Notes: generated from the letters alone by a model not told the origin. A DNA stretch of 64,000 nucleotides from Methanomicrobiales archaeon (GCA_015660865.1 JACTUA010000006.1:87777-151776); one strand, 5' to 3'. Positions 18,421 to 39,641 are shown, numbered from the stretch's first letter. Numbers and translations: made by a program.

Positions 18421-19389
18421 ATGCCAGGCTGCTCGGTCATCACGGCAGATCTCTTCTCGGTCCATGATATGCCGGGTCACCCCGAGTGCAACGCACGCCT
18501 GATCGGGGCCCTCTCCGGGGTTCCCCGTGATATTCCCCGTTATCAGCCGGTGAAAGCCCTGCGCGAGGACGTTGAGAGGATTCACATCCCCGAGTACGTG
18601 AGCGGGCTCGAAGAGGCATGTGCCGGCACCCGGACCTTCACCATGCTGGATCCGGACACCTACGTCACCCATTCCTCGTTCGACGTGGCGCTCTATGCTG
18701 CCGGGGGCGCCATCGGGGCCGCGGATCGGGCGCTCTCGGGGGAGCACTGTTTCGCGCTCGTCAGGCCACCCGGCCACCATGCCGAGAGAGATCGTGCGAT
18801 GGGATTCTGCCTGCTCAACAACGTGGCTATCGCCGCGGCCAGGGCCCTCGGGAAGGTCGAGCGGGTTGCCATCGTGGACTGGGATGTGCACCATGGGAAC
18901 GGCACCCAGCAGGCATTCTATGCATCCGACCGGGTCCTCTACTGCTCCGTCCACAGGGGTCACTATTATCCCTACTCGGGCAGGACAGATGAACGGGGAT
19001 CCGGTGCGGGTCAGGGTTTCAACCTGAACGCCCCTCTTGAAGCCGGATCGACCATCGCAGATTACGATGCAGTCTTCGAGGAGGTCTTTGTTCCGGCCAT
19101 CCGCAAATTCCGCCCCGAGCTGCTCCTCGTCTCGGCAGGCCAGGATATCCTCTCTGATGATCCCCTCGGGGGGATGGAGCTGTACCCCGCCGACCTCGGC
19201 CTCCTCACCTTGCGGCTCATGAAGGCCGGCGGACTCCCCCTGGCCCTGGTCCTCGAAGGCGGTTACGGCCCCTCCCACGGGGCTGCCATCGGCGAGATCT
19301 TCCGCGTTCTGGGCGGCGGAATACCGGAGAAGAAGGAAGGGACTCCCCAGGAAAGCACCGAGCGGGTCATCGAGGCGCTGAAGGGGTGA
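18421..19389 (+). CDS. Histone deacetylase-family deacetylase (AcuC/AphA-like)
   Basis: 322 aa with RPPGHHAERDRAMGFCLLNNVAIAA, DWDVHHGNGTQ and EGGY, the class I/II HDAC active-site motifs. Confidence 0.85.
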   Translation: MPGCSVITADLFSVHDMPGHPECNARLIGALSGVPRDIPRYQPVKALREDVERIHIPEYVSGLEEACAGTRTFTMLDPDTYVTHSSFDVALYAAGGAIGAADRALSGEHCFALVRPPGHHAERDRAMGFCLLNNVAIAAARALGKVERVAIVDWDVHHGNGTQQAFYASDRVLYCSVHRGHYYPYSGRTDERGSGAGQGFNLNAPLEAGSTIADYDAVFEEVFVPAIRKFRPELLLVSAGQDILSDDPLGGMELYPADLGLLTLRLMKAGGLPLALVLEGGYGPSHGAAIGEIFRVLGGGIPEKKEGTPQESTERVIEALKG

Positions 19390-19494
19390 GAATATAGGGC
19401 ACGTCGTCAACGTCTCCCTTCCACACATCGGTGTCCGGGAGGGCCACTCTCCATGATTATAGGGATGAATGACCAAACTCTCTTAAGGGACACT

Positions 19495-19791
19495 ATGAAG
19501 ACCATCCACCTCATCATCTCAATCCTCCTCGGCATGACGCTCATTGTGGCAGGCTGTACTCAGCAATCGACGGGACCAGGGCCAGCTGCGGGCGAGACCA
19601 CCCCCTCCGTCACAACGAGTTCAGCCCTGGCGAACCCGGCGGCCAAGTTCTGCGAGGAAAAGAACTACCGGTACGAGATACGGACGAACCCCGACGGGAG
19701 CGAGTACGGGGTCTGCATCTTCCCCGACAAGACCGAGTGCGAGGAGTGGGCCTTCTACCGGGGGACGTGCAACGAGACGACGGCGAGGTAA
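19495..19791 (+). CDS. DUF333-family small secreted lipoprotein
   Basis: The start is placed at MKTIHLIISILLGMTLIVAGC (signal plus lipobox). The C-terminus NPAAKFCEEKNY...GSEYGVCIFPDKTECEEWAFYRGTC is the DUF333 cysteine pattern. Confidence 0.65.
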   Translation: MKTIHLIISILLGMTLIVAGCTQQSTGPGPAAGETTPSVTTSSALANPAAKFCEEKNYRYEIRTNPDGSEYGVCIFPDKTECEEWAFYRGTCNETTAR

Positions 19792-19948
19792 AGAGAGGAG
19801 AAAAAGAAGGACTAGCAAAAGATCTTCTGGTCAGCTGCCTTACCTTCGGGTCGGCTCTCACTTCACTCCCAGGAGGATCCGGAGATCTGGGAATGCCGGT
19901 ATTGTTATGCTATTTTTCCGGCTGAATCCTACGATTAGGGGTAATTAA

Positions 19949-21058
19949 TTATTTGGCGATTATTTGATTCTCCTCAATCCAATTATCGATTAAATTTGGA
20001 ATGTCTTTCGAAATATTCTTTGAATCGAATTCTTTGTAGAGTTTTCCGATAATATCAGTTGGATAAATTTGATTTTTAATTCTATTATCTTTTAAGATGC
20101 ACACTTTTTTATTTAAACCAAACATGAGGCCAACTTCTAATACTATATTCGGATCAATTTCAACCTCACTCGATGACATACTTGGTGGATCAATAACGGC
20201 GATACCAAATTTAGAACCATATAGATAAGTTATTATATTATTATATACATCACCGTTAAAAACCCGATAATCAGCACGTATTCCTATCAAATTATGTTTT
20301 TTTAATACTTCGTTTATTCTAAGAAATATTTCATCGTTATGAGGATTTTTATCGAATCTCATCATTATAAATGCAATTATTTCAGGATTTTTGAACTCTT
20401 CTTTGAATAATGATAAACTATCTTGAATTTCTTTAGGAATTATTTGGAGATAAGAATCAGAAGTCAGAATGGGTTTTGGTGGTTTTACTTCAATCCCTCC
20501 CACTCCAGTTCCAATCTTTTTTGCGAAGTCGATTGACCCGTAATTAATAAAATTAACCCTTGAATGGGGTAAATCAGGACTTTTTCCAAATCTCATGATC
20601 TTCCAATAATAAATTGATTTAATTGAAATTTCAATTAAAAGTCCGTCGAATTCATTTAATTTATGTAATGAGACGAATATATTAATTTCAAATGGTAAAT
20701 CATCTGTAGTAATGCTTATTTCGTCTAAATATTTGTCACTTGCTTTTTTTCGAACCCCTCTATTTACTAATCGGTCTAAAAATGTTGAGGGGTCATCGAA
20801 ATAAAGATTTGGATGAAATTTTTTGTGGTGAAACGTTAACGATAGCTGTAAGTTTACAAAAGGATTCTCATTTTCCAAGTAATATCCATTTGAATCCAAT
20901 TCGGATTTAACTCTTCGAATGATATTTTCAATTTGTTCTACAGGTGATTTAAGTTGAAGAAAGTATTCTCCTTTAACAATAAAGTGTTCTGGTCCGTATA
21001 GCATTATGATACTATTAGAAGAAGGGAGATTTAATTTATATCCTCGGATGATCACCAA
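19949..21058 (-). CDS. AT-rich orphan protein with an unknown N-terminal region and a C-terminal nucleoside 2-deoxyribosyltransferase/TIR-like Rossmann domain (tentative)
   Basis: This long ORF sits in a block of roughly 22-38% G+C (hand counts of sampled 60-nt lines), against about 68% in the flank. The likely real start is ATG 21004, with gatataaatta about 27 nt upstream. The C-terminal motifs are IAFIMMRF, GIRADY, FGIAVID and PNIVLEVGLMFGLNKKVCIL. Confidence 0.65.
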   Translation of the reverse strand: MVIIRGYKLNLPSSNSIIMLYGPEHFIVKGEYFLQLKSPVEQIENIIRRVKSELDSNGYYLENENPFVNLQLSLTFHHKKFHPNLYFDDPSTFLDRLVNRGVRKKASDKYLDEISITTDDLPFEINIFVSLHKLNEFDGLLIEISIKSIYYWKIMRFGKSPDLPHSRVNFINYGSIDFAKKIGTGVGGIEVKPPKPILTSDSYLQIIPKEIQDSLSLFKEEFKNPEIIAFIMMRFDKNPHNDEIFLRINEVLKKHNLIGIRADYRVFNGDVYNNIITYLYGSKFGIAVIDPPSMSSSEVEIDPNIVLEVGLMFGLNKKVCILKDNRIKNQIYPTDIIGKLYKEFDSKNISKDIPNLIDNWIEENQIIAK

Positions 21059-21177
21059 CCGTTAATCGATATTGGCACTCTCAAACCTAGCATAGAGCTG
21101 GACTATGTCCAAGTTGACACTTGCGATCTACTCGAATAATATCGATATATAATGGCGAACAAAGAAAAATATCCCGG

Positions 21178-21257
21178 TCACCCCATCCCCCACTGCGCCA
21201 ACGTCGTGCGGGACGGGTCCACGTCGTGCCAGTCCCACTCGAGGGCCTTGATGATCC
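21178..21257 (-). repeat. polB 3'-end copy D (most distal)
   Basis: The minus strand reads ...IIKALEWDWHDVDPSRTTLAQWGMG-TGA. It matches copy C at 74/82 positions by hand alignment. It contains the 9-mer acgtcgtgc twice (21201-21209 and 21221-21229). Confidence 0.9.
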
Positions 21258-21322
21258 AGGAATGGTCCCCAGCAGGAGCAACAATCCAATATCACCGGGA
21301 TAATTCACAACTTCGCCGTGAC

Positions 21323-21487
21323 TCATCGCCGGGGCACATTCGCGAGGAGGATTTTTTCAATCTCCTTTAAATCCTCTTTCTTTTGCAGGACCCGGTTCTT
21401 CATGACAAGGGAAATCCGGGAAAGAACCTCGGGATCCCCTTCCTCCACCTTCTGGATGATGAGCTGGATGATATCCTCGGGAGTCAT
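21323..21487 (-). CDS. Possible 54-aa ORF, the only candidate gene in the third cassette
   Basis: The sequence is MTPEDIIQLIIQKVEEGDPEVLSRISLVMKNRVLQKKEDLKEIEKILLANVPRR*. It is below the ORF-track size cutoff and higher in G+C than the AT-rich sequence around it. No motif is recognised, and it may be a gene fragment. Confidence 0.25.
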   Translation of the reverse strand: MTPEDIIQLIIQKVEEGDPEVLSRISLVMKNRVLQKKEDLKEIEKILLANVPRR

Positions 21488-21815
21488 TCGCGAAGGGCAG
21501 CTACGTGGAACTCATGCCAAAAATGTCCCGCGTCAGCCGTATTTCACCCCTTGAAATATCTCTCGTGTATTTATGTTTTTCATCTTAATAATATATATAA
21601 CATTCTATCATTGTTAATCTCTAAAAAACGTTTAATCATCTTTTTAAGCATTTATATCGTTAATTGACGTTTAAAGATATTTTCCAGACCACCCCTCACT
21701 TTAGCCATTACCCCGCCAAGCCTTCCACTTCATCCCCCCTTATCCTGATGATATCATTGAAGGAGACTTGTCGGTTCATTCTTTAACGGTTAACGGGGCA
21801 CAATTCCGTTGTACG

Positions 21816-21899
21816 TTTTACCCCATCCCCCACTGCGCGAGCGTCGTCCGGGACGGGGCCACGTCGTGCCAGTCCCACCCGAGGGCCTCGATGATCCGG
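21816..21899 (-). repeat. polB 3'-end copy C
   Basis: The minus strand reads ...RIIEALGWDWHDVAPSRTTLAQWGMG-TAA. It matches the genic copy at 75/82 positions by hand alignment, and 2 further nt past the stop also match. Confidence 0.9.
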
Positions 21900-21989
21900 G
21901 AAATCAGGTTATTCGACATTCGAATGAAATGCATGCTGCCGACGACTTTCCTGTGATGGGATCTTTTCCCATAAAAAGATCGATATTGG

Positions 21990-22898
21990 TTATTGCCCCT
22001 TAGAATCCTGTTGACTCTTCAACATGAACTGCTGCCATTTGGCGCTCGAGAGATCCGGAAAATATCCTTCTCCTGCCTTAAAGTTTCCGGCGATGAAATG
22101 CCCACCATGACTTGGGGCGATCACGGAATCAAAAAAGTAGTCTTCGTAGTAGTTCCATCTCCAAGTATCATAGCCGTCAAGCCATCCGTTCTGGACTTGA
22201 ATTCGAAGCAGAATAGAGACCGAATCCTGGGTGCCCGGATAGTACCCATGATCCCCCGTTAAATCCGCATAGATCCAGGTAAATTGCATGCTTGAAGTAT
22301 TCGTGTATTTCTTCAATTCTGAGCCCTGCCATGCGGTCGTTTCCTCAACTGGGCTGGGTGGGGAAAAAGAAAACTTTGGAAGGATGATGGATTCATTGCC
22401 AACAGGATAAAGCGTATTTGCGTAATAAGACGGTGATTGAAGGTTATGCGCATTATCGTGTAGCTCGACTCGGTAGGTCTCATTCGGCCAGGAATCTGCA
22501 TGAATGCGGACAAACCAGAGTTCATTAGGGTTGGAAAAGATTTGCTTCCCATTTATATAGCTCAAATTCCATTCAGGAGGGGACGTGGTGAAAGAAATTA
22601 ATAATCCCTCTTTCTCGAAGTCTTCGGGCACGATCGACCGGTTTCCTATCATAGGTCTGCCATTCTTCACCGGGAGCGGAATATAAAAAGTGGCATTTTG
22701 AAGGGGACCATAGTTCTGAATATACAGATCGTATTCAAAACCCTTGGATAGAAATTCAGGAAATACCTCATTGCTTGGCAACAGTGGCATGAGGACGAAG
22801 AATGCGTAACCAAAAATCACGGAGGAGAGGATCCAAAGGATGAGTACAAGGAGGACTGCCGCAAGAATGGCTAATATGACGTTCCTTGAGGAAGACAC
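21990..22898 (-). CDS. Cassette ORF X: signal-anchored extracytoplasmic protein of unknown function
   Basis: 302 aa with a GTG start. The N-terminus has positive charge followed by a TM helix (RNVILAILAAVLLVLILWILSSVIFGYAFFVL). The remainder is aromatic-rich and carries six N-x-S/T sequons (NAT, NRS, NLS, NET, NES, NTS). G+C is clearly below the core genes. Confidence 0.6.
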   Translation of the reverse strand: MSSSRNVILAILAAVLLVLILWILSSVIFGYAFFVLMPLLPSNEVFPEFLSKGFEYDLYIQNYGPLQNATFYIPLPVKNGRPMIGNRSIVPEDFEKEGLLISFTTSPPEWNLSYINGKQIFSNPNELWFVRIHADSWPNETYRVELHDNAHNLQSPSYYANTLYPVGNESIILPKFSFSPPSPVEETTAWQGSELKKYTNTSSMQFTWIYADLTGDHGYYPGTQDSVSILLRIQVQNGWLDGYDTWRWNYYEDYFFDSVIAPSHGGHFIAGNFKAGEGYFPDLSSAKWQQFMLKSQQDSKGQ

Positions 22899-22969
22899 AA
22901 TGAACCACTGGGTCGGGTTTTCAGGTACACTTTCAATATGCTATTATGCTCGGGCCGCCTTGAATCTGT

Positions 22970-23009
22970 CTATCCCATCCCCCACTGCGCGAGCGTCGTC
23001 TGCGACGGG
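22970..23009 (-). repeat. polB 3'-end copy B (short)
   Basis: The minus strand reads ...PSQTTLAQWGMG-TAG. It matches copy C at 36/40 positions, and homology ends after about 40 nt. Confidence 0.85.
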
Positions 23010-23043
23010 TATGCGGATTGCGAGTCCGCTCCAGAATTACTCC

Positions 23044-23967
23044 TTATGAAGGTTCGATCCCCTGCAAAGGTGTTGCCACAGATCTCCCTATGTATTCCTT
23101 GACAGCCGCGAAATTCTCTTCGGTGCAGATAAGGAGGATAATCGGCGATATGGATTTGCTTATTGGCGTGAGCCACGGTTCCGTTCCGATCCGTATTGTC
23201 AGAGAATCGGGGTGAACCTCTACAGCCCTGATAGCACTCCATGGGATGTGGGTGGACTCCCTGGTGAGAAATGCCAGCGAATCAGACATCTCCCCCCAGG
23301 CCATCAGGTAAAGGCCCCACTGCTGGGCTACCGTTAGGAAATTCCTGAAGGATACCCCATCTTCGTCCACCCAGTATTCCGCGAGGCCGGATCCATCGGC
23401 AGCCTCCCTGATGGTGTAGAACATCCTGCCTGCGTTCAACATGTAGGCGACGAGAACTCCCAGGCATACCGCAAGCCCCCAGTCTTTCATTTCCTGATCA
23501 ACCGCGCTTATCGCGATGAGATACATAATAGTCCCAACGAGGCCGGCACTGAGAAGAATCGGAATCCCCAGGCCGAATATCACCACGAGGGACGAGGGGA
23601 TCATCGCTATTCGCCACCTGATGGCGTTACTCTTCCTGTTCCATCCCCGTATTGAGGGAGCATCAGGTTGAACAGGGGCCGGTATGGTCCACCCCTTCAT
23701 GTCGGTGAGCGAGTGCTTCGTGGTTATTGCTACTCCCGCTCCCCCGATAGCATCCATGGCGAGCCTCTTCTTCCACCCCCGATGCAGAAGGTAGATTGCA
23801 GCACCGAAAACGAACAGAAGACCCAGGAGGGGATTGAAGAACAAACCGTCTCCGGTCAACAATTCAGGCCCGGCAAGAAGGAAGGTCAATAGGATTGTGA
23901 TGAGAAGGATCCCGACGATGGCGAGTATCTCGATTTTTTCAGGGGTTTTCCAGCCTGGCATGCTCAT
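23044..23967 (-). CDS. Cassette ORF Y: polytopic membrane protein with a C-terminal soluble domain, function unknown
   Basis: 307 aa with about five hydrophobic segments by eye, followed by a ~110-aa soluble tail (IPWSAIRAVEVHPDSLTIRIG...LLICTEENFAAVKEYI). An attttataa TATA box lies about 25 nt upstream of the ATG. Confidence 0.6.
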   Translation of the reverse strand: MSMPGWKTPEKIEILAIVGILLITILLTFLLAGPELLTGDGLFFNPLLGLLFVFGAAIYLLHRGWKKRLAMDAIGGAGVAITTKHSLTDMKGWTIPAPVQPDAPSIRGWNRKSNAIRWRIAMIPSSLVVIFGLGIPILLSAGLVGTIMYLIAISAVDQEMKDWGLAVCLGVLVAYMLNAGRMFYTIREAADGSGLAEYWVDEDGVSFRNFLTVAQQWGLYLMAWGEMSDSLAFLTRESTHIPWSAIRAVEVHPDSLTIRIGTEPWLTPISKSISPIILLICTEENFAAVKEYIGRSVATPLQGIEPS

Positions 23968-24031
23968 GGGAAGATGGGATGGGTCACGTTATAAAATATC
24001 TATCAGGAGATCCCGGAGGCGGAGATCTCTC

Positions 24032-24115
24032 TTTTACCCCATCCCGAACTGCGCGAGCGTCGTCCGGGACGGGTCAACGTCGTGCCAGTCCCATCCCAGT
24101 GCCTCGATGATCCGG
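24032..24115 (-). repeat. polB 3'-end copy A (functional gene terminus and candidate attachment site)
   Basis: This is the last 27 codons plus the TAA of polB (...SRIIEALGWDWHDVDPSRTTLAQFGMG*). It is the reference for copies B, C and D. Confidence 0.9.
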
Positions 24116-26478
24116 CTGATGGGCTGCCGGATTGTCTTCTCGAGCATCGTCTCCCAGTCGACGACGAACTCGGGGGGCACCTGGTCGCCGTACTCGAAGC
24201 AGAGGACATCGGTCTTCGGGTATTTGGCTTTCACGTTCCTGATGTAGATACGCTTCGGCTTGGACCCTTTTTTGAAGTCTGCTTTGAGGTGCATGTTCGC
24301 GTACTCGGCACCCCGCCTGTGGGCATCGTTCGTCTCGTACTGGTCGAGGGCCTTCTGGATCCCGCCGGGGATTCCCACCTCGTCAAGGCTGTACTTCCCA
24401 GCCCGGAATTTCGTGATGATAGCCCCAAGGTACGCCTTCACCTCGGGGAGGCCTTCTCCCTTCAGGATCTTCTCGATGACGGTCCGCTGGACCTCTTTCG
24501 TGATCTGCGGGTAGTCTGAGCGTCTGAGCTCGAAGCCAACAATATCGATCTCGTCCACGTCCTTCCCCTCCTTCCAGACGAGGTGCCCGGCGTAGCGCTT
24601 CTTCTTCCCCGCCTGGAAGAACCGCCGGTAGATCTTCTCAAACTTGATGGAGAAGTAGTGGGAGTCGGCGGAAAGTGTCTTCTTCGCGAACTCACAATAG
24701 CTCGCGTTCAGCGCGGCCTCGATCTTCCGGGCAGTCTCGATGGTCAGGGCCTCCTCCATCGGGGGAATCTGGACCATGCAGGAGTCGGTGTCGCCGTAGA
24801 TGACATGGTAGCCCAGGGACTCGATGACCGTTCTCGTGTGCTCGATGATGGCCCGCCCCACCGAGGTGACCGCTGCCCCGATTTCCCGGTCATAGAGCCT
24901 GAACCGGGCATAGCCCGAGACCCCGTAGTAGGTGTTCATGATGACCTTCAGGACGTTCTGCTGGAGGTCGTAGAGGATGAAATCAGGGGACCCGAACGGG
25001 TATCCGTTGCGGAGAGTCTTCTTCTGCTCCCGCTCCTTCAGGAGCTCGGCGATGATGGACCGGGTGAGCCCGTCGGGCTCGCGCCGGAAGCGGACCCCGT
25101 TCGGGGCCCGGAACTCCCCGTTCGGGTCCTTGGTCTCGGGCGAGGCGTTGATGGTCATCATCGCCATGGGGTACAGGGACTTCAGGTCAAGAACGACGAC
25201 GTTCTCCTTCACCCCCTTCGACGGGTCAAAGACCGTCGCTCCCTCGAACTCCTCGGCGGCGGCGAAGCCCTTCGACGGGAGGACAAACCGGCCGAAGGCC
25301 TTCCGGAGGATGTAGATGTCTATCACCTGGGAGGAGTTGAGGGTGCGGTCCAGGGGGCACCCGACGTAGCGGGCGATCTCCCGGTAGAACTCGATGATGT
25401 GGTTCTTCCGGTTGATGGCCACGCAGAGCTCCACGTCCTTCCTGTTGTAGTCCACGAGCCGGGCCGGGTCCTCCCTCCAGAGGGAGGAGAGGGTCCCCGT
25501 GAACCGGATCTTTGTCTCCCCGACCTCCTCCTCGGCTACGGCGTCCAGCCGGTAGGACTCCCGCTGGCTCCCGTGCATCTTCTTGTACGCGTCCAGGAGG
25601 TCGAAGAGGGCGCGTCCACGAAGCGCGGTCCGCTCGGTCCGCTCCTCCAGCCGCGCGAGGCAGGTCGGGTTCACCCCGAGGCGCTCCATCCGGGCGATGA
25701 TGTACGGGATATCGAATTCGAGGAAGTTCCAGCCCGAAAGGACGTCGGGGTCGCGTTCCCTCATGTAGCGGGCGAGGCCGAGGAGCATCTCCTTCTCGTC
25801 CTTGAACACCTCGACCGTGATCCTCTCGTCTGCTGGGGAAATGACCGGGACCGTGCCGGAGGCCGCAAGGAGGAAGCTCGTGTAATCGTCCTGGAAGGAG
25901 TCCCAGCATGTGATGGCGATGATCTTATCCCGCTCCGGCTCGGGGAACCCGCGCTCGTCCTCGCATTCGATGTCCATCATGCAGGTGCGGGCCGGTGCGT
26001 TCACCTCGGCCGCGCGGAGGGTGTGGTAATCTGCCTGGAGGGACGGGGCTTCGACGCCACCGGTAAGCCCATTGTCGATGAGGAACCGTGTCGCAAACGG
26101 GATATCGGCCTCGTAGTGCCTGTATCGTTCACGGTAATCCCTGACGTCGGTCGGTCTCCTGGTATAGAGCCTGCAGAGGGTCTCGCCCCGGATCGAGCGG
26201 TATGCATGGTCCGGATCGACCTCGACCCCGGAAGGGATGGGTGTCGCCGTGACCTGCTCCGCGGGGGCATAGAAGTACGGGCGGAAACCGGTCACCTCGA
26301 GGTGGACCGCCGAGCCGTTCCCGTCCCTCCCGAAGATGTGGATGACCGGCCCCTGGGGGCTGTTCGTGTACTCCACCTGGTTGATGGCGATGCGGATGCC
26401 GGAGTAATCGGCAAGGGTGCGGGTTATGGTACGCTTCTCAAAGCCCGGAACGACGGTCAGAGCCGCTCCCTCACCCAT
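24034..26478 (-). CDS. polB: Family B DNA polymerase
   Basis: The start is placed at MGEGAALTVV (ATG 26476-26478, overlapping the mdh stop). Exo motifs are DIECE and NFLEFDIPY. Polymerase motifs are SLYPMAMM, KVIMNTYYG and YGDTDS. Confidence 0.95.
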   Translation of the reverse strand: MGEGAALTVVPGFEKRTITRTLADYSGIRIAINQVEYTNSPQGPVIHIFGRDGNGSAVHLEVTGFRPYFYAPAEQVTATPIPSGVEVDPDHAYRSIRGETLCRLYTRRPTDVRDYRERYRHYEADIPFATRFLIDNGLTGGVEAPSLQADYHTLRAAEVNAPARTCMMDIECEDERGFPEPERDKIIAITCWDSFQDDYTSFLLAASGTVPVISPADERITVEVFKDEKEMLLGLARYMRERDPDVLSGWNFLEFDIPYIIARMERLGVNPTCLARLEERTERTALRGRALFDLLDAYKKMHGSQRESYRLDAVAEEEVGETKIRFTGTLSSLWREDPARLVDYNRKDVELCVAINRKNHIIEFYREIARYVGCPLDRTLNSSQVIDIYILRKAFGRFVLPSKGFAAAEEFEGATVFDPSKGVKENVVVLDLKSLYPMAMMTINASPETKDPNGEFRAPNGVRFRREPDGLTRSIIAELLKEREQKKTLRNGYPFGSPDFILYDLQQNVLKVIMNTYYGVSGYARFRLYDREIGAAVTSVGRAIIEHTRTVIESLGYHVIYGDTDSCMVQIPPMEEALTIETARKIEAALNASYCEFAKKTLSADSHYFSIKFEKIYRRFFQAGKKKRYAGHLVWKEGKDVDEIDIVGFELRRSDYPQITKEVQRTVIEKILKGEGLPEVKAYLGAIITKFRAGKYSLDEVGIPGGIQKALDQYETNDAHRRGAEYANMHLKADFKKGSKPKRIYIRNVKAKYPKTDVLCFEYGDQVPPEFVVDWETMLEKTIRQPISRIIEALGWDWHDVDPSRTTLAQFGMG

Positions 26479-29125: not shown

Positions 29126-31489
29126 ATGCTCAGTCAGCCGCGAATGAAACTGAAGGTCACCATCGACGAGCTCATCACGGACCGGCTGAGGGCAAAGGGC
29201 GTCGAGTTCAACGTCGGGAGGGTCATCGAGTCCTGGGACGAGGAACCGGGCCCCACCCCGATGCCCGGCATCGCGACCCTCCGGTCCTGGGACCGTGCCC
29301 TCCTCTCGAAGTACCACCCGTTCTACCTCCCTTTCTGCGACCTCTGCTGCCTCTGCACCATGGGGAAATGCGACCTCTCGGGGGGTAAGAGGGGGGCCTG
29401 CGGGATCGACATGGCCGCGCAGCAGTCCCGGATCGTCCTCCTCGCCTGTACCATGGGGGCCGCCACCCATACCGGCCACATGCGCCACCTCCTCACCGAG
29501 CTCATCGGCTCCTTCGGCCGGGATCATCCCATCGATGTCGGCTCGTCGGTCCTCCTCGAGGCCCCCCATGCCAGGCTGGTGACCGGGATAAAGCCGAAGA
29601 CCCTCGGGGATCTCGAGGACGTGGTCGAGTACTGCGAACAGGAGATCACCCAGCTCCTCTCCTGCTGCCATACCGGCCAGGAGGGGGATCCCCTCGACCT
29701 TGAGTCAAAGGTCCTCCATGCCGGTATGATCGACCACGTCGCCCTCGAGGGGAGCGACATCGCCCAGATCTCTGCCTACTCGTTCCCGAAAGGGGACCCG
29801 GAGGCATGCCTTATTGACTGCGGGGCAGGATGCATCGATCCGGGGAAGCCGGTCATCCTCGTCATCGGCCACAACGTCCCGCCCGCCATCGCCATCGCCG
29901 ACACCATGCATGACCTGGGCCTCGACGATAAGATCGAGGTCGCCGGGATCTGCTGCACGGCCCTCGACCTCACCCGGTACAATGCGGGTGCACGGATCGT
30001 GGGTGCACTCTCCCACCAGCTCAGGTTCATCCGATCCGGCATGGCTGACGTCATCGTGGTCGATGAGCAGTGCATCCGCTCCGATGTCCTCCACGAGGCG
30101 ATGAAGACCCACGCCCCCCTTATCGTGACCAATGCCAAGAACCTCCAGGGGCTCCCTGACAGGACCGGCGACGATCCTGACGAGATCGTCCGGTCTCTCG
30201 TAGAAGGCCAGGAGGCCGGGGCGGCCATCCTGGACCCTGATAAGGTCGGGGAGGTGGCTGTGCGGGTGGCCATGGAGCTCTCCCCGAAGAGGAGGAAGTT
30301 CAGGAACCTCCCGGACCAGGCCTCCATCATCGAAGCTGCCGGAGCATGTACAGGCTGTTTCAGCTGCATGCGGGCCTGCCCGAATAACCGTGAGATAACC
30401 GCCGCCATGAACGCTGCCTCCACGGGGGATCTCGCACCTCTCGCTGCCCTCTATGACTCGTGCATCGGCTGTGCCAGGTGCGAGGATGCCTGCCCCTCCG
30501 GCCTCTCTCCCCATGATCTGATCGCCGGGGCCTCCCGCGCCCTCTGCCCTCCCGAAAGATACCATATCAGGGCCGGGCGGGGCCCCATCCAGGACACCGA
30601 GATCCGGGCGGTGGGCGGGCCGATCGTCATGGGGGAGATCCCCGGGGTTGTTGCCACCATAGGATGCTCCAACTACCCGGGGAGCTGGAACGATGTCGGT
30701 TCGATGGCCGAGGAGTTCCTGAAGCGGCGCTACATTGTGGTGACCTCAGGGTGCACCGCCATCTCCATCGGGATGTACAAAAACGAGAACGGGGAGGGCC
30801 TCTACGACATCTACCCGGGCCGGTTCGATGCAGGCGGCCTCGTCAACTGCGGGTCCTGTGTCTCCAATGCCCACATCTCCGGCGCAGCGGTGAAGATCGC
30901 AAGCATCTTTGCGAAGAGGAAGCTCAACTCGAACTACGAGGAGATAGCCGACTATGTCCACCACCGGGTCGGGGCGGTCGGTATCGCCTGGGGCGCCATG
31001 TCCCAGAAGGCCGCGGCCATCGCCGCCGGGTTCTGGAGGCTCGGCATCCCGGTCATCGCCGGCCCCCACGGCGCAAAGTACCGGCGCATGCTCCTCGGGA
31101 GAAAGGACCGGGAGGAGGACTGGTATGTCCTGGATGCCCGGAGCGGCGAGCGGGTCTACGCGGGCCCCGTCCCCGAGCACCTCTTCACCGTCGCAGAGAC
31201 GAGGGAGGAAGCCATGGTGCTCGTGCCCAAGCTCTGCATGAGGCCGAACGACACGGCCAGAGGGAGATCGATCAAGTTGAACCATTACATCGACCTCCAC
31301 CGGAAGTTCTTCGGGGGGATGCCGGATGATCTCCCGCTTCTTGTCAGGACGAGGGCGGATATCCCCATCACCATGAAAGACGAGGTGGTCAGGTTCCTTG
31401 CTGCGCATGGCTGGAAAGAGAACGAGCTGCCCATCCCCGATCCCACCATGCTTCCCAGGCTCGCGAAGAGGGGGGAGAACCCCCCGTGA
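29126..31489 (+). CDS. cdhA: CO dehydrogenase/acetyl-CoA synthase complex, alpha (CODH catalytic) subunit
   Basis: 787 aa with FCDLCCLCTMGKCDL, GACGID, two ferredoxin-type CxxCxxCxxxCP motifs (CTGCFSCMRACP, CIGCARCEDACP) and C-cluster region GCSNY...GSCVSNAH. An alternative start is ATG 29144. Confidence 0.95.
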   Translation: MLSQPRMKLKVTIDELITDRLRAKGVEFNVGRVIESWDEEPGPTPMPGIATLRSWDRALLSKYHPFYLPFCDLCCLCTMGKCDLSGGKRGACGIDMAAQQSRIVLLACTMGAATHTGHMRHLLTELIGSFGRDHPIDVGSSVLLEAPHARLVTGIKPKTLGDLEDVVEYCEQEITQLLSCCHTGQEGDPLDLESKVLHAGMIDHVALEGSDIAQISAYSFPKGDPEACLIDCGAGCIDPGKPVILVIGHNVPPAIAIADTMHDLGLDDKIEVAGICCTALDLTRYNAGARIVGALSHQLRFIRSGMADVIVVDEQCIRSDVLHEAMKTHAPLIVTNAKNLQGLPDRTGDDPDEIVRSLVEGQEAGAAILDPDKVGEVAVRVAMELSPKRRKFRNLPDQASIIEAAGACTGCFSCMRACPNNREITAAMNAASTGDLAPLAALYDSCIGCARCEDACPSGLSPHDLIAGASRALCPPERYHIRAGRGPIQDTEIRAVGGPIVMGEIPGVVATIGCSNYPGSWNDVGSMAEEFLKRRYIVVTSGCTAISIGMYKNENGEGLYDIYPGRFDAGGLVNCGSCVSNAHISGAAVKIASIFAKRKLNSNYEEIADYVHHRVGAVGIAWGAMSQKAAAIAAGFWRLGIPVIAGPHGAKYRRMLLGRKDREEDWYVLDARSGERVYAGPVPEHLFTVAETREEAMVLVPKLCMRPNDTARGRSIKLNHYIDLHRKFFGGMPDDLPLLVRTRADIPITMKDEVVRFLAAHGWKENELPIPDPTMLPRLAKRGENPP

Positions 31490-32022
31490 AGGGCGAGGCC
31501 TGGCTGCGGGCAGAGACCCCTGCGATCGTCAGGGCAACTCTCATCGAGAAGCCGGGGGTGGCCGCAAAGCTCCTGAAGAGGGCGAAGAGCCCGGTCATCG
31601 TCGTCGGCCACGAGGTCGCGGAGGGAGAAGGATCCGGGATCCTGGACCCGATTGCCCGGATCGCCCGGGCGACCGGCGCACCCGTCGTTGCTACCGGGGG
31701 AGTCTCCGCGGAATTCGGGAGGAGGAGATTCGCCCCGGTGATCGTGATGTCAGCCATGGAGGCGGGGGATCGCCTCCTGGACCCGGCATGGCGGCCGGCC
31801 CCTGATCGCAGCCCGCCGGATTATGCATTTATCCTCGGCGTGCCCTTTGCCATCGCCTCGGTCATCGAGGCAGGCCTCGCGTCCTTTGCCCGGGACCACC
31901 TGAAGATCATCTCCCTGGACCGGCTCTACCATCCGCACTGCGATCTCTCCCTCCCGAACCAGTCCCGGGAGGAGTGGGAGAAGAACCTCGAGACCATCGC
32001 CCGGGAGGTGGAGAAGACATGA
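31486..32022 (+). CDS. cdhB: CODH/ACS complex, epsilon subunit
   Basis: 178 aa with a GTG start overlapping the cdhA stop. Its position and size match cdhB, and the PVIVVGHEV/GAPVVATGG pattern fits. Confidence 0.85.
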   Translation: MKGEAWLRAETPAIVRATLIEKPGVAAKLLKRAKSPVIVVGHEVAEGEGSGILDPIARIARATGAPVVATGGVSAEFGRRRFAPVIVMSAMEAGDRLLDPAWRPAPDRSPPDYAFILGVPFAIASVIEAGLASFARDHLKIISLDRLYHPHCDLSLPNQSREEWEKNLETIAREVEKT

Positions 32023-33407
32023 CGGGCGAGGGGATGTTCGCGGATATCCCCGTCGAGGTCGGGGTCGTCTTCGAGGGCGAGCGGATCCGGAAGCAGCAGA
32101 TGCATGCCGAGCTGGGCGGCCCGAACGTGGAGGAGAAGTTCGAGATCCTGGAGGTGAAGGGACCCGGGGAGGTGGAGGACGGGAAGATCAAGATCATCGG
32201 CCCTGACCTTCCCCAGATGCCAGAGGGCTCGAGCCATCCCTTCGGCACCGAGATCGCCGTCGCAGGGAAAGGGATCGAGCCCGACATGGCCGGGGTGATG
32301 GAGCGGCGGGTCCACGACTTCTCCAACTGGATCGAGGGATACATGCACCTGAACCAGCGGGATGCCATCTGGCTCCGGGTCGACAAGAGATCGGTGAAGA
32401 AGGGGCTCACGCTCAGGCACATCGGCGTTGTCCTCGCCCGGCTGCTCAGGAGCGCCATTCCCCTCATCGAGGCCGTCGAGGTGACCTTCATCACCGATCC
32501 GGAGGAGGTCCACCGCCGGATCGGGAGGGTGCAGGGGATCTTCGAGGAGCGGGATGCCCGCACCCGGGGCATGACCGACAGTGACGTGGATGTCTTCTTC
32601 GGCTGCACCCTCTGCCAGTCCTTCGCCCCCTCCCACGTCTGTGTCATCACGCCCCAGCGGTACGCGAACTGCGGGGCCATCTCCTGGATGGACGGGAGGG
32701 CTGCCTCCCGGGTCGACCCGAAGGGGCCCATCTTCGAGATCGCGAAGGGTGAGTGCCTGGACGCAGGCACCGGGGAGTACACGGGGGTGAACGCTGTCGT
32801 GAAGGAGAAGTCCCTGGGGAACGTCGAGCGGGTGCAGCTCTACTCGGCCTTCGGGTACCCCCACACCTCCTGCGGCTGCTTCGAGTGCACCACCTTCTAC
32901 GTCCCCGAGTGCGACGGCCTCGGCATCGTCCACCGCGACTATAAGGGGAAAACCCCCACCGGCCTCTCCTTCGGCGCCATCGCCGATTCGACGGCGGGAG
33001 GGAGGCAGGTCGACGGGTTCCACGGCCTCGCCTTCGAGTACATGAGGTCCCCGAGGTTTCTCTCGGCGAGCGGCGGGTGGAAGCGGGTCGTCTGGGTCCC
33101 GTCTGAGGTGAAGGAGAGGATGAAGGACCAGATCCCCCCCGAGCTCAAGGATGCCATCGCGACCGAGAAGGACGTGACGACTGTCGATGCCCTCGTCGCC
33201 TTCCTTCGGGAGCACCACCACCCGATCATGGATCGGATAAAAGCGCCGGAACCCGTTCCTGCGGCTGAGAATCCCGGGACGGAGGTCAGGCGGCCCCAGA
33301 CGGCCTCCCAGAACACGGTGACCATCCCGGGAGGAAGCGTCAGCCTCACCCTGAAGAACGTGAAGATCCATGCCGAACGGATGATCATCCGGAAGAAACA
33401 GGAGTGA
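32019..33407 (+). CDS. cdhC: CODH/ACS complex, beta subunit (acetyl-CoA synthase, A-cluster)
   Basis: The start is placed at ATG 32019 (an ATGA overlap with cdhB). A-cluster cysteines are present (FFGCTLCQSFAPSHVCVITP, CGAISW, HTSCGCFEC). Confidence 0.95.
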   Translation: MTGEGMFADIPVEVGVVFEGERIRKQQMHAELGGPNVEEKFEILEVKGPGEVEDGKIKIIGPDLPQMPEGSSHPFGTEIAVAGKGIEPDMAGVMERRVHDFSNWIEGYMHLNQRDAIWLRVDKRSVKKGLTLRHIGVVLARLLRSAIPLIEAVEVTFITDPEEVHRRIGRVQGIFEERDARTRGMTDSDVDVFFGCTLCQSFAPSHVCVITPQRYANCGAISWMDGRAASRVDPKGPIFEIAKGECLDAGTGEYTGVNAVVKEKSLGNVERVQLYSAFGYPHTSCGCFECTTFYVPECDGLGIVHRDYKGKTPTGLSFGAIADSTAGGRQVDGFHGLAFEYMRSPRFLSASGGWKRVVWVPSEVKERMKDQIPPELKDAIATEKDVTTVDALVAFLREHHHPIMDRIKAPEPVPAAENPGTEVRRPQTASQNTVTIPGGSVSLTLKNVKIHAERMIIRKKQE

Positions 33408-33414
33408 GACGCGT

Positions 33415-34590
33415 ATGGGAGAGGACGACGGGGACCTGGTGAGGATCCTCCTGGAGCTGATCTCTGCCTCGGGGGAGGTCGAGCTCCAGGATATCGCGAT
33501 CGCCGCGGAGGAGCTCACCGTGACCTTCGAGGGAAAGGCCGCCCTCTCGCGCCTCCTTGCCGAGGAGCTCGCCGTCGTCTCCCCCGAGACCCTCCTCGAG
33601 GCCGAGTACCATCCACCGGTCCGCACCTACCCGGGCTCCATCGTGGAGGTGACCCTCGGGGCCGGTCGTGCAGAGGGAGGGACCCGGAGGCATCCGGTCA
33701 CCATCGGGGGCGAGAGAGCCCCTGCCTTCCATACTTTCCAGGAGATCCCCCTTCACCCGCCGGTCATCGCGGGATCGATCTTCGACAGTGCACCCCCTCT
33801 CCCTGCCCCGGTGAGGGCCTTCTTCGGCGACGCCCTCCAGGACCCGTGCGAGTGGGCCCGCCTCTGGGTGAACAAGTTCGGCGCCGACCTCGTCGACCTC
33901 GACCTGACGAGCACCGATCCCTACATCAAGGATACCCCCGTGCAGGATGCGGCGCGGCTCGTCGAAGACCTCCTCCAGGCGGTGGACGTCCCGATCATCA
34001 TCGGGGGCTCGGGGAACCCCCAGAAGGACGCCCAGGTCCTCCCGAAGATCGCCGAGGTCTGCGAGGGTGAACGGGTGCTCCTCTCCTCGGCGACCCTGGA
34101 CATGTGGAAGCCCGTCGCAGAGGCGGCCAAGAGGCACGGGCAGGTGGTCCTCGCCTGGTCGCCCATCGATATCAACCAGGCCAAGGAGCTGAACCGGAAC
34201 CTCACCGGCTACATCACCCCCGCCCAGATCATCATGGACCCGACCTCTGCAGCCCTCGGGTATGGCCTCGAGTACGCCTACTCGGTCATCGAGCGCATAC
34301 GGCATGCCGCCCTCATGGGCGATAAGGAGCTCCAGTCCCCCCAGGCGGCAGGGACCGCGAACTCCTGGGGCGCACGGGAGGCCTGGAAAACGGATCCCAC
34401 ACTCGGTCCGAGGGAGCTTCGCGGCCCCATGTGGGAGCTGACCGGGAGCCTCGCCTACCTCCTCGCCGGTGTCGACCTCTTCATCATGCTCCACCCGGGC
34501 GCGGCGCGTACGGTGAAGGACATCGTGGGATGGCTCTCCGGGGGATCGGCACCGCCGACCTTCAGGGAACTCATCGGGGTGGGGAAGTGA
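33415..34590 (+). CDS. cdhD: CODH/ACS complex, delta subunit (corrinoid/Fe-S protein small subunit)
   Basis: 391 aa at the operon position after cdhC. It has TIM-barrel-like corrinoid protein motifs (ADLVDLDLTSTDP, PIIIGGSGNP). Confidence 0.9.
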   Translation: MGEDDGDLVRILLELISASGEVELQDIAIAAEELTVTFEGKAALSRLLAEELAVVSPETLLEAEYHPPVRTYPGSIVEVTLGAGRAEGGTRRHPVTIGGERAPAFHTFQEIPLHPPVIAGSIFDSAPPLPAPVRAFFGDALQDPCEWARLWVNKFGADLVDLDLTSTDPYIKDTPVQDAARLVEDLLQAVDVPIIIGGSGNPQKDAQVLPKIAEVCEGERVLLSSATLDMWKPVAEAAKRHGQVVLAWSPIDINQAKELNRNLTGYITPAQIIMDPTSAALGYGLEYAYSVIERIRHAALMGDKELQSPQAAGTANSWGAREAWKTDPTLGPRELRGPMWELTGSLAYLLAGVDLFIMLHPGAARTVKDIVGWLSGGSAPPTFRELIGVGK

Positions 34591-34597
34591 GGGCGGG

Positions 34598-36022
34598 ATG
34601 AAGCAGATCGGCCCGATGAAGGTCTACCCGCTCCTCCCCAAGACGAACTGCGGGGTCTGCGAGCCGAAGACCTGCATGGGTTTTGCGGTCCAGCTCTGCG
34701 AGCGGAATTTCACCGTCGATGAGTGCCCCCCCCTCCTCGAAGAGAAGTACCGGGAGAACCTAGTAAGGCTCAGGGAGATCTTTACCCCGCCTATACGGGA
34801 GGTGGTGATCGGGAGCGGCGACCATAAGGTGACCATCGGCGGTGCCCTTGTCCTCATGCGCCACGAGCTCCGGTATACGAACCCGCCCGCCATCGCGGTC
34901 GTCGTCGACGACAGCATGACGGACGAGACCGTGACAAAAAGGGTGCAGGAGACGAACTACTTCCACTACAAGTACATCGGGAAGATCCTCACCCTCGATG
35001 CCATCGCCATCCGGTCGGCGAACGAACACCCCGAGAGATACGCGCGGCTCGTCGAGATCGTGGCAAAGTCGACCCAGCTCCCGCTCATCCTCTGGTCCCA
35101 CAACCCCGCGGTCATCGAGGCGGGGGTGAAGGTCGTCCATGCCCGGAGGCCGCTCCTCTATGCGGCGACCCGGGAGAACTGGAAGCAGATGGGCGAGCTC
35201 GCCCTCCACTACCGCTGCCCCCTCGGTGTCTACGACCACGAGATCCGTATGCTCAGGTCCATCGTGAAGACCCTGAGGGTCATGGGCGTCGACGACCTGG
35301 TGCTCGACCCCGGTTGCGGGTTCCGCGGCGACCTCATGGAGACCGTGAGCGCCCTCACCCAGATCCGGATCGCGGCCATCCGGGACGAGGACGACCTCCT
35401 CGGCTACCCCCTGGCGGGTGCCCCGGCAACCCTCTGGGAGAAGCTCTACGCAGAAGGGAAGGACGTCGTCAGGTGGAAGGAGGCATGCCTCTCCGCGATG
35501 ATGGTCGTGCGATACGTGGACCTCCTGATGGTCTCCTCGGCCTCGAAGTGGTCAACCCTGCCCCTCGTCGTGCTCAGGAACAACATCTACAATGATCCGA
35601 GGAAACCCGTGAGCGTGGAGCCGGGCCTGAGGACCTTCGGGGAACCGGATCCGAAGGAAGCCCCCGTATTCATCACCTCGAACTTCGCCCTCACCTACTA
35701 CACGGTACTCTCGGACATCGAGAAGCTCGACTGCCACCTCCTCGTGGTGGACACCGAGGGGATGAGTGTCGACTCGGCTGTCGCGGGGAGGAAGTTCACG
35801 GGCGCGAAGGTCGCCGAGGTGGTGGCATCCTCGGGGATCGCGGAGAAGGTCTCCCACCGCACCCTGATCATCCCCGGGCTCGCGGCACGCCTGAAGGGCG
35901 ATATCGAGGACGCGACCGGCTGGGACGTCGTCGTCGGGCCGAGGGACTCCTCGTCGATACCCGGGTACGTCAAGGCGAAGTGGTACGGGCAGGACCACAC
36001 CCCCGGGTGGTCGGCCCGGTAG
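34598..36022 (+). CDS. cdhE: CODH/ACS complex, gamma subunit (corrinoid/Fe-S protein large subunit)
   Basis: 474 aa. The N-terminal 4Fe-4S motif is LPKTNCGVCEPKTCMGFA...C, followed by a pterin-binding-like domain. Confidence 0.9.
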   Translation: MKQIGPMKVYPLLPKTNCGVCEPKTCMGFAVQLCERNFTVDECPPLLEEKYRENLVRLREIFTPPIREVVIGSGDHKVTIGGALVLMRHELRYTNPPAIAVVVDDSMTDETVTKRVQETNYFHYKYIGKILTLDAIAIRSANEHPERYARLVEIVAKSTQLPLILWSHNPAVIEAGVKVVHARRPLLYAATRENWKQMGELALHYRCPLGVYDHEIRMLRSIVKTLRVMGVDDLVLDPGCGFRGDLMETVSALTQIRIAAIRDEDDLLGYPLAGAPATLWEKLYAEGKDVVRWKEACLSAMMVVRYVDLLMVSSASKWSTLPLVVLRNNIYNDPRKPVSVEPGLRTFGEPDPKEAPVFITSNFALTYYTVLSDIEKLDCHLLVVDTEGMSVDSAVAGRKFTGAKVAEVVASSGIAEKVSHRTLIIPGLAARLKGDIEDATGWDVVVGPRDSSSIPGYVKAKWYGQDHTPGWSAR

Positions 36023-36038
36023 GGGGAACAGGTCCGGC

Positions 36039-36689
36039 ATGGAGACTGCAGATCCGAAGGAGATCCTCTCCATCCTCCTCGATTTCAAGGGGGAGCGGGT
36101 GAAGGAGTTCTGCGAGAGAAGGATCAGGGACAGGATCACCCCGCATGGGATCTTCGCGGAGCTCTCGGCAGGTCTCGACGAGATAGGAAGGGGATTCGAG
36201 GGGAAGGGCGGGACCCGGTACTTCACCTCCGATCTCATCGTCTCGGGCCGGAACATGAAGCGGGCGCTTGCGATCCTCAGGCCCCATTTCCCGAAGGGCG
36301 GGAAGGGTCGGGGGCTCGTCATCCTGGGGACCGTGAAGGGAGATGTCCATGACATCGGGAAGATGATCTTCTCCGTGACGCTCGAGTCAAATGGCTTCTC
36401 CTGCATCGACCTCGGCGTGGACGTGGACCGGGCCATCTTCGCCGGGAGTGTGGCCAGCCAGAGGCCGGATATCCTCTCACTCTCGGCTCTCCTCTCCTCC
36501 ACCCTCCCTGCGATGGGGGAGGTGATCGAGGAGCTGAAACGCCGCGGGCTCCGCGAGGATGTGAAGGTCATCGTCGGAGGCCACGCCGTCACAGAGGAGT
36601 TCGCCCGCGAGATCGGGGCAGATGCGTATGGCAGGGACGCCATCGACGGGCTGAAGAAGTGCCTTGCCTTCGTCGGGGCGGGTACATGA
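36039..36689 (+). CDS. Cobalamin-binding (corrinoid) protein of the MtxC-like family
   Basis: 216 aa with an N-terminal helical cap and a B12-binding Rossmann domain carrying the DxHxxG motif (GDVHDIGKMI), then SALLSST and GG(H)AV. Confidence 0.8.
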   Translation: METADPKEILSILLDFKGERVKEFCERRIRDRITPHGIFAELSAGLDEIGRGFEGKGGTRYFTSDLIVSGRNMKRALAILRPHFPKGGKGRGLVILGTVKGDVHDIGKMIFSVTLESNGFSCIDLGVDVDRAIFAGSVASQRPDILSLSALLSSTLPAMGEVIEELKRRGLREDVKVIVGGHAVTEEFAREIGADAYGRDAIDGLKKCLAFVGAGT

Positions 36690-37627: not shown

Positions 37628-37629
37628 AC

Positions 37630-37841
37630 GCTCTTGGGGGCTTCGCCCCCGCCGCTCTGGCATCCCCCATTGCGATAGCCTGTTCAACCTCGCTTCGAAT
37701 GGATTGATCTCCCCGAGAATACCCCCTTATCCTGCTCGGGGTGCCCTTCAAGAGGCAGAAGATCCTGTGGAAAAACCGCCTGCACATGCCCCGGTACACG
37801 ACGGGGGGTGCCCGCGGCGGGGGCGGAAGTCCCCCGAGAGC
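37630..37841. mobile_element. 212-bp MITE-like element with ~40-bp imperfect terminal inverted repeats (copy E1)
   Basis: The left end is gctcttgggggcttcgcccccgccgctctggcatccccc. The reverse complement of the right end is gctctcgggggacttccgcccccgccgcgggcacccccc. E1 begins 3 nt after the DUF166 stop and is homologous along its length to 54881-55093. Confidence 0.55.
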
Positions 37842-39527: not shown

Positions 39528-39641
39528 CCGGTTCTCCGAAGAACGGCCACCACCGGACGAGGCCGATTCTGCCCCGGGGCCGGCCGGGCCGTGGATACCT
39601 TGAATTTATATCCGAGGCTCATCATGGTATGGGATAAAAGG

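Follow-up and report, generated by a model that had tools for sequence, protein, structure and literature searches.

In a stretch of 64,000 nucleotides from a Methanomicrobiales archaeon (GCA_015660865.1 JACTUA010000006.1:87777-151776; the whole stretch is called the window below), polB, the gene for the chromosomal family-B DNA polymerase, is followed by a 4.5-kb array in which displaced copies of its own 3' end alternate with other DNA. We put the probability at roughly 0.5 that this array is a stack of displaced C-termini, built up in a few old events of recombination between diverged relatives. It looks like a slow pile-up by recombination between related strains, and not like an active gene-cassette system. 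The original prediction for this locus, made from its sequence, had proposed that three cassettes were inserted by repeated site-specific integration into the end of polB. The part of that proposal in which polB termini are displaced, and the functional end is replaced by incoming DNA, is supported by our data; the mechanism of site-specific integration is not. The features on which the argument rests are as follows, with comparison loci and assemblies designated by L numbers throughout.

19453-19791, plus strand: DUF333 gene, convergent with polB, at which the core genome resumes (Pfam PF03891, E=1.5e-18)
19803-21177, minus strand: cargo of unit 4, with open reading frame (ORF) 4 (19949-21058, 369 aa, 29% G+C), which has a TIR-like domain, and a spacer vestige
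21178-21265, minus strand: copy D, relic of the final 88-95 nt of polB; 1-nt deletion, stop TGA; heads unit 4
21266-21817, minus strand: native polB-downstream segment with a 54-aa ORF, conserved in L176, L081 and L085
21818-21904, minus strand: copy C, relic of the final ~87 nt of polB (ISRIIEALGWDWHDVAPSRTTLAQWGMG, stop TAA)
21905-22969, minus strand: cargo of unit 2, ORF2 (21990-22898, 302 aa); membrane helix at the N-terminus plus all-beta domain
22970-23010, minus strand: copy B, relic of the final 41 nt of polB (..PSQTTLAQWGMG, stop TAG)
23011-24033, minus strand: cargo of unit 1, ORF1 (23044-23967, 307 aa), with four hydrophobic segments and no Pfam match
24034-24128, minus strand: copy A, the functional polB 3' terminus, stop TAA
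24034-26520, minus strand: polB, 828-aa ORF (814 aa in the JGI gene call), assigned by Pfam and synteny
24110-24132, minus strand: small palindrome ATCCGGCAG-CCCAT-CAGCCGGAT inside polB, 8/9 complementary

The identity of polB is clear from its Pfam matches (DNA_pol_B, E=3e-44; DNA_pol_B_exo1, E=2.5e-25) and from its synteny in more than 150 Methanomicrobiales loci. A repeat finder recovered an 84-nt unit in four direct copies (21176-21259, 21816-21899, 22968-23051 and 24032-24115), and a search with the 27-nt core, allowing up to 3 mismatches, gave 4 matches in the 64-kb window, where 100 shuffles predict 0.00; no unit copies beyond A, B, C and D were found there. All four are minus-strand copies with a single orientation and correspond to the polB 3' end, which confirms the original prediction on this point, and its spacings of ~1.02, 1.07 and 0.56 kb between copies are also correct. 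The array reaches past the predicted limits of 21178-24115, with a fourth unit (19803-21265) made up of copy D and the 29% G+C gene. Copy A occupies 24034-24115, and its homology with the longest relics reaches ~24128. Aligned to copy C over 84 nt without gaps, A is 92% and D 88% identical, and copy B matches copy C at ~36/41 positions. The homology limit is the stop codon in each copy (TAA, TAG, TAA and TGA from A to D), the reading frame is intact in the window relics (..TTLAQWGMG before the stop), and each relic is followed by its own downstream DNA. Copy A codes TTC (Phe) where relics B, C and D all have TGG (Trp). The TTC of the functional copy is also present in L176, L081, L082, L084 and L005, and the TGG of the window relics is the ancestral codon. 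Copy D is 92% identical to the polB end of L005, as against 82% to the window's own copy A.

The organism is known from metagenomes only. Contigs of several relatives break at the polB end (L001, L004, L006), as might be expected if the array were an assembly artefact or a chimera of strain variants. However, the whole array is 100% identical over its 4.5 kb in seven independent JGI assemblies (L161-L167), on contigs of up to 227 kb, and an assembly artefact is thereby excluded. The seven samples are from peat, and contigs with the locus include Ga0427947_000058, Ga0187878_1000017 and one of 526 kb. In addition, the four copies differ by 8-17% and would not collapse or mis-join, so that this explanation retains practically no probability.

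The original prediction counted a cassette in each of the three intervals between copies, and found at most one ORF in each. Each interval does hold one ORF (307 aa, 302 aa and 54 aa), and the intervals are compositionally distinct and below the core: G+C at third codon positions (GC3) is 0.64 for ORF1 and 0.51 for ORF2, compared with 0.75-0.9 in core genes and 0.24 in ORF4, and G+C in the third interval falls to a minimum of 0.38-0.41. The third interval is not an insert. The 550 nt 3' of copy C share 72-79% nucleotide identity with L176, L081 and L085. The 54-aa ORF within them (21323-21487, minus strand; MTPEDIIQLIIQKVEEGDPEV...) has no family match, is 91-94% identical in amino acids over its first 33 residues in L176 and L085, has a ratio of nonsynonymous to synonymous divergence (dN/dS) of 0.16 against L176, and is probably a real small protein gene. 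This conservation and the low dN/dS identify the third interval as native DNA rather than an insert, and the left arm of the native terminator hairpin (..CTGGGGA, 21266-21272) closes the segment (21266-21817). With a native third interval, copy C is probably the ancestral polB terminus, and the DNA that natively follows it is still attached. Between polB and the copy-C-type relic, the sequence differs in each of L176, L081 and L085.

DUF333 lies ~45-240 nt from the polB stop codon in empty-site relatives; in L091, L095 and L093 its stop is ~45 nt after polB, and the spacer carries a terminator-like hairpin, ACCGGGGGGAGAG-ATC-CCTCTCCC. The hairpin is intact in L176, L091 and L095. The unit 19803-21265 is absent from L176, where the hairpin arms are 5-6 nt apart, and in the window the arms are separated by 1,463 nt (19803-21265), which contain in order copy D, ORF4 and, 3' of ORF4 at 19851-19897, a vestige of the native spacer that is found after polB in empty-site genomes. 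The polB-end repeat stands only at the head of this D-ORF4 unit, with no second copy. Seated as it is in the native hairpin loop, D-ORF4 cannot have arisen by recombination between two attachment sites (att x att). It is best explained as the polB end and downstream DNA of some relative, which would have been joined illegitimately in the loop. The C-terminal domain of ORF4 is of the CAP12/Pycsar TIR type (PF10137, E=1.9e-5), and its structure model has a confident fold in the TIR-like half alone. A PADLOC search of the cargo genes gave a weak PDC-S35 match for ORF4 and nothing else.

Cassette 1 speaks to the age of the array. Homologues of ORF1 are confined to the window's clade and occur after polB in L081 and L176, with 84% amino acid identity. 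Between the window and L176, synonymous divergence (dS) is 0.29 for ORF1 and 0.36 for polB, and dN/dS for ORF1 is 0.28. A dS comparable to that of polB rules out recent transfer of cassette 1, which is about as old as the species split and is maintained under purifying selection. It follows from these values that the array is old and stable, and a cassette of this age is not what a fast cassette platform would hold.

Cassette 2 shows how units can come and go. The polB genes of L176 and L081 are ~90% identical in nucleotides to that of the window, and both loci have the order polB, ORF1 homologue, one relic, segment with the 54-aa ORF, native hairpin, DUF333; they are without cassette 2 plus one repeat. 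Their single relic has the left flank of B, with the same -42 junction, and the right flank of C, and as such recombination inside the 41-nt tract must have added or removed the unit. The relic is 39/40 identical to the genic end of L176 and 40/40 to the polB end of L005, which suggests gene conversion or recent displacement. ORF2 itself is absent from L176 and L081, and a homologue (60% identical) occurs in L171, where it is followed by a polB-end relic. Because ORF2 and ORF4 are lower in G+C and absent from L176, they are more likely later gains, although L176 may instead have lost ORF2.

From these observations we propose the following course of events. DNA that arrives with the 3' portion of polB and another gene behind it would pair with the resident polB by ordinary homology, and its far end would join illegitimately within the last 40-95 nt of the resident gene or, in the case of D-ORF4, inside the native terminator hairpin, in its loop. 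In this way polB would keep a full terminus from the incoming DNA, and the old terminus would be displaced downstream as a non-functional relic. The relics would then serve as short homology tracts, through which unequal homologous recombination or gene conversion could add, remove and homogenise units, and the presence or absence of cassette 2 would be an example of such copy-to-copy recombination. A dedicated recombinase would not be required. The joints seen in the window and its relatives are at variable positions, from -42 to -95, with one in the hairpin loop.

The empty, shorter and differently filled sites that the original prediction had anticipated were found in a survey of 160 polB loci from Methanomicrobiales genomes and metagenomes, of which 130 had at least 1 kb of downstream sequence. 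A downstream relic was present in 8 of the 130, and 7 of these belong to the window's own clade. Sites are empty in L007, L091 and L095 and differently occupied in L176, L081, L085, L086, L003, L002 and L017. L003/L087 carry a protein of 264 aa as cargo and L002/L089 one of 279 aa. The cargo of L085 is a cysteine-rich protein of 184 aa and that of L086 a collagen-like protein of 224 aa, these two on the opposite strand, and L017 has a HicA/HicB-like pair between 96%-identical repeats. The 5' boundaries of the relics are at -42 (window B, L081, L176), -45 (L171), -58 (L017), ~-69 (L003) and between -83 and -95 (window C, window D, L085/L086, L002). Upstream of relics C, D and those of L085 and L002 (L085R, L002R), no convincing homology to a common flank was detected. 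Relics have decayed by frameshifts and stop codons in L003 and L002. Small genes of low G+C also occur 3' of polB without any repeat (L057, L062, L064, L082, L084), and these repeat-less inserts mark the site as a general hotspot. When L082 is compared with L083, divergence is 10.7% in the last 84 nt and 3.6% in the upstream 616 nt, which is suggestive of a replaced terminus, the numbers being too small for more.

In keeping with displacement, the relics carry the polB signatures of their own lineages: WDWHDV and WDWASV separate the window from L085/L086, and L017 has TLSQWG. Such signatures would also arise from purely internal events, in which the polB end was duplicated in tandem on the spot and the copies then diverged or received unrelated insertions, with no horizontal input at the terminus. 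We consider this improbable. The DNA between the copies is unrelated and compositionally foreign (GC3 of 0.24-0.64 against 0.75-0.9 in the core), and the genic copy has TTC like related species, while the three relics keep the ancestral TGG. Furthermore, the only distant homologue of ORF4 with readable context adjoins a TonB-dependent receptor gene, a bacterial-type setting.

Resemblance of the relics to the host's own polB end, with a 3' boundary fixed at the stop codon, could in principle also reflect target-site duplication by a transposase-like or casposase-like enzyme making staggered cuts ~40-95 nt apart at the polB end. This is very improbable, as the lengths vary from 41 to ~95 nt, D-ORF4 is without a second copy, and the relics differ from the genic copy at positions where they match other lineages. 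The cassette ends show no terminal inverted repeats, and neither a transposase nor a Cas1 gene was seen in the array and its flanks. A casposon or transposon was rejected on the same grounds, together with the lack of a fixed duplication length.

The most serious alternative to displacement by recombination between relatives is serial site-specific integration, in which small, non-autonomous cassettes with a polB-end attP site would be inserted by a tyrosine integrase encoded in trans, with accretion like that of cis-mobilizable elements (CIME) or in the manner of an integron. We regard it as possible but doubtful. It would account for direct repeats of a single orientation that all finish with the stop codon, for the clustering of 5' boundaries at -83 to -95 and -42/-45, and for units of ~0.85-1.5 kb with A+T-rich promoter-like stretches. 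The gain or loss of cassette 2 exactly between two copies, the ORF2 homologue of L171 that again adjoins a relic, the HicAB-like cassette of L017 between its 96%-identical repeats, and the restriction of relics mainly to one clade are in agreement with it. Integration into the 3' ends of protein genes, and tandem arrays of integrated elements, have precedent in archaea (PMC6563490). As such, the original prediction's view that a protein-coding target is unusual does not stand.

Several results argue against integration nonetheless. The D-ORF4 relic is at the head of its unit only and the unit is seated in a hairpin loop, the third supposed cassette is native DNA, the boundaries are heterogeneous, relatives have repeat-less inserts after polB, and cassette 1 is as old as the species split. 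Across 134 polB ends, a core inverted repeat shows no conservation. An integrase was found neither at 11-40 kb of the window nor, as a soft negative, downstream of polB in the 130 relatives, and viral, plasmid and phage collections gave no attP-like copy. On account of the hairpin-loop seating, the uneven boundaries, the repeat-less inserts and the native third interval, we regard repeated site-specific integration as the less probable source of the array. PolB-end repeats do flank cassettes 1 and 2, but the D-ORF4 repeat is at the head only and the C-D interval is native. A related possibility is that the polB 3' end of this clade is a true attachment platform, at which single-gene cassettes, each with its copy of the polB terminus, go in and out through a recombinase encoded elsewhere or use the relic as a portable homology arm. 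We think this unlikely. If true, archaea would have a cassette system without an integrase of its own, with an essential replication gene as its anchor, and if a recombinase moved the cassettes in trans, the platform would be of a type new to archaea.

The statement in the original prediction that no recombinase gene lies in or beside the array holds, and none is present within ~10-15 kb on either side. By Pfam, there is no recombinase among the array ORFs and the 20 flanking genes (11.4-40.4 kb of the window), and the flanking genes are housekeeping genes. ORF2 was considered as a hidden recombinase and rejected, its confident structure model (predicted local distance difference test score, pLDDT, of 88) being a membrane helix plus an all-beta domain with no match in the PDB. 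In the relatives, ORFs from the 10 kb downstream of polB formed 306 clusters, and representatives of 139 mid-sized ones (200-520 aa) were scanned with Pfam and PHROG; no integrase was among the best 25 families listed per search, which makes this a soft negative. The original prediction also implied attP-bearing forms outside the chromosome, and these did not materialise: no polB-end copy, and thus no free attP-bearing form, was found in IMG/VR (two DNA patterns and a peptide scan), PLSDB or INPHARED. A transfer RNA (tRNA) gene as the integration target was rejected, there being no tRNA gene in the window, and no Rfam family was found in 19000-24600 beyond a chance-level match to a small nucleolar RNA.

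The clustering of boundaries may have a local cause. The palindrome at 24110-24132 is made by codons for I-R...R-I and occupies positions -104 to -82, and four independent relics have their 5' ends, at -83 to -95, in its loop or right arm. Breakage may be frequent at this palindrome. The right ends of the cargo also adjoin hairpins, which is a possible reason for boundary clustering as well. The repeat itself folds, as single-stranded DNA on both strands, no better than shuffles (z-scores of -0.84 to +2.2), and the terminal inverted repeat is not conserved, a mean of 4.5/9 positions being paired across the 134 polB ends, as in shifted controls. An attC-like or terminator-like structure in the repeat was rejected on these results. 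A dif-like site has two 11-nt inverted arms around a 6-nt spacer (PMC8371274). This 11-6-11 layout is absent from the unit, whose best inverted repeats are 12-12-12 (10/12 complementary) and 9-5-9, and elements that exploit Xer/dif (integrative mobile elements exploiting Xer, IMEX, and pdif modules) were rejected accordingly.

A number of points weigh against displacement by recombination between relatives. Four independent junctions fall at -83 to -95 and two at -42/-45, and a fixed att length would account for this clustering more simply, although the clustering is not statistically strong either way; on our reading it would stem from the palindrome at -104 to -82, or from recombination that removed longer repeats. 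Of the 8 loci with relics among 130, 7 are from a single clade, which a clade-specific recombinase could cause. The HicA/HicB-like cassette of L017 between its 96%-identical repeats resembles a discrete mobile module, and clear microhomology was not found at the joints. The negative result for an integrase in relatives is a soft one, resting on the best 25 families per search, and the integrase search as a whole spans 11-40 kb of the window and the polB-downstream DNA of relatives.

The closest known parallel is in the Rhs, CdiA and type VI secretion system (T6SS) effector loci, which contain arrays of orphan 3' modules for which homology-facilitated illegitimate recombination has been proposed (PMC5361080, citing Jackson et al. 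2009). As in those loci, the polB array has a constant upstream gene followed by displaced 3' fragments that all point the same way, and behind each fragment lies a downstream gene of its own; a new terminus would come from incoming DNA with no integrase involved; and the array changes slowly, with later movement by ordinary homologous recombination. In contrast to those loci, what is displaced is the conserved terminus of an essential replicative polymerase and not a variable toxin domain, the fragments are 41-95 nt long, the host is an archaeon, and there is no sign of selection keeping old units in the way that immunity genes are kept.

Accretion of integrated elements at gene ends is a second point of comparison. 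In streptococci, ICESt and CIME elements at fda form tandem accretions at the 3' end of a protein-coding gene. Like these, the polB array has direct 3'-end repeats that bracket foreign DNA, an intact gene, a site that is reused and some units without an integrase, and empty and occupied sites exist among close relatives, as is expected of 3'-end integration. Among thaumarchaeal integrated mobile genetic elements (iMGEs), 14 of 68 are in the 3' ends of protein genes, and tandem arrays occur there too (PMC6563490). The polB array differs from such accretions in that no integrase-bearing partner was seen at the site in any relative, one unit is unbracketed, repeat lengths are heterogeneous and the units are of ~1 kb with single genes.

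Integron cassette arrays, which have been reported in Archaea as well, share with the polB array ~1-kb units, mostly of a single gene, that are separated by a repeated element of ~40-90 nt, and toxin-antitoxin cargo is present in one relative. Unlike integrons, the array is without intI and without a folded site of the attC kind, its repeat is the end of a coding gene, cargo may be in either orientation (L085, L086) and has its own A+T-rich promoter-like stretches, and turnover is slow. No Phage_integrase domain was found by Pfam in the array ORFs or the 20 flanking genes, and as such there was no sign of the intI/attI pair of an integron. At the 3' ends of fungal mitochondrial genes, such as atp6 of Allomyces, mobile ORF inserts bring a new C-terminal segment and leave the old one downstream. 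The order of gene, new terminus, inserted ORF and relic of the old terminus is the same here, but the fungal inserts encode homing endonucleases by which the event is driven, and no cargo gene of the polB array resembles a nuclease.

What is new here is the replicative polB as target, the single-gene units, the archaeal methanogen lineage and the displacement architecture at a housekeeping gene instead of a toxin locus. The array shows gene addition beside an essential gene, without damage to it and without a mobile-element enzyme, in uncultured archaea of a methanogen lineage. Each cargo gene in the window is preceded by an A+T-rich, TATA-like stretch, as is seen before ORF1, and the cargo of these sites includes a TIR-like gene, which may act in defence, membrane proteins and, in one relative, toxin-antitoxin-like pairs. 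The fossil termini are a record of earlier states of the polymerase C-terminus, with Trp in the relics and Phe now. The present C-terminus is ..SRTTLAQFGMG (24034-24075), copy B having Q for R, and this motif may be a PCNA-interacting motif (PCNA-binding box).

Several further observations concern the polB-downstream site and its neighbours. A gene for a Clp1-type P-loop kinase (PF16575) is the usual convergent polB neighbour in many relatives, including Methanoregula loci; a Clp1-like gene abuts polB in L005 (12487-13374, minus strand) and L090 and is also found in L082 and L084. It is absent from the window and from the examined relic-bearing genomes, and no relic was seen in genomes that keep it. 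DUF333 is tandemly duplicated, with two to four repeats, in L007 (12600-13700), L005 (13445-13960), L091, L092, L095 and L097, and is a single copy in the window. The contigs of L001, L004, L006 and L073 end at the polB stop codon or a few bases from it, and variable or repeated DNA 3' of polB seems to break short-read assemblies. The site is a practical marker of strain-level variation and of assembly breaks in Methanomicrobiales metagenomes.

The ORF2 family occurs head-to-head with a gene for a protein of ~670-690 aa without Pfam match in L168-L170, L172-L173, L177 and L180-L182, and in L177 an IS1595 transposase gene lies between the ORF2-family gene and this divergent partner. The window has no second ORF2 copy, no gene for the ~680-aa partner and no Clp1-like gene. 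Among the ORFs downstream of polB in relatives, one within 10 kb has a match in PHROG to the large subunit of terminase (E=1.2e-14), and several others resemble DNA methyltransferases. On the other side of polB, ~3 kb beyond its start, the window contains a carbon monoxide dehydrogenase/acetyl-CoA decarbonylase/synthase (CODH/ACS) cluster (29126-34590, plus strand) with Prismane/CO dehydrogenase, CO_dh, CdhC and CdhD, and between the two lie a malate/lactate dehydrogenase gene and two dihydroorotate dehydrogenase genes. Further along are a 711-aa ORF without Pfam match (35552-37687, minus strand) and a 699-aa ORF (38364-40463, plus strand) whose sole match is a C-terminal CbiA/ParA-type P-loop domain.

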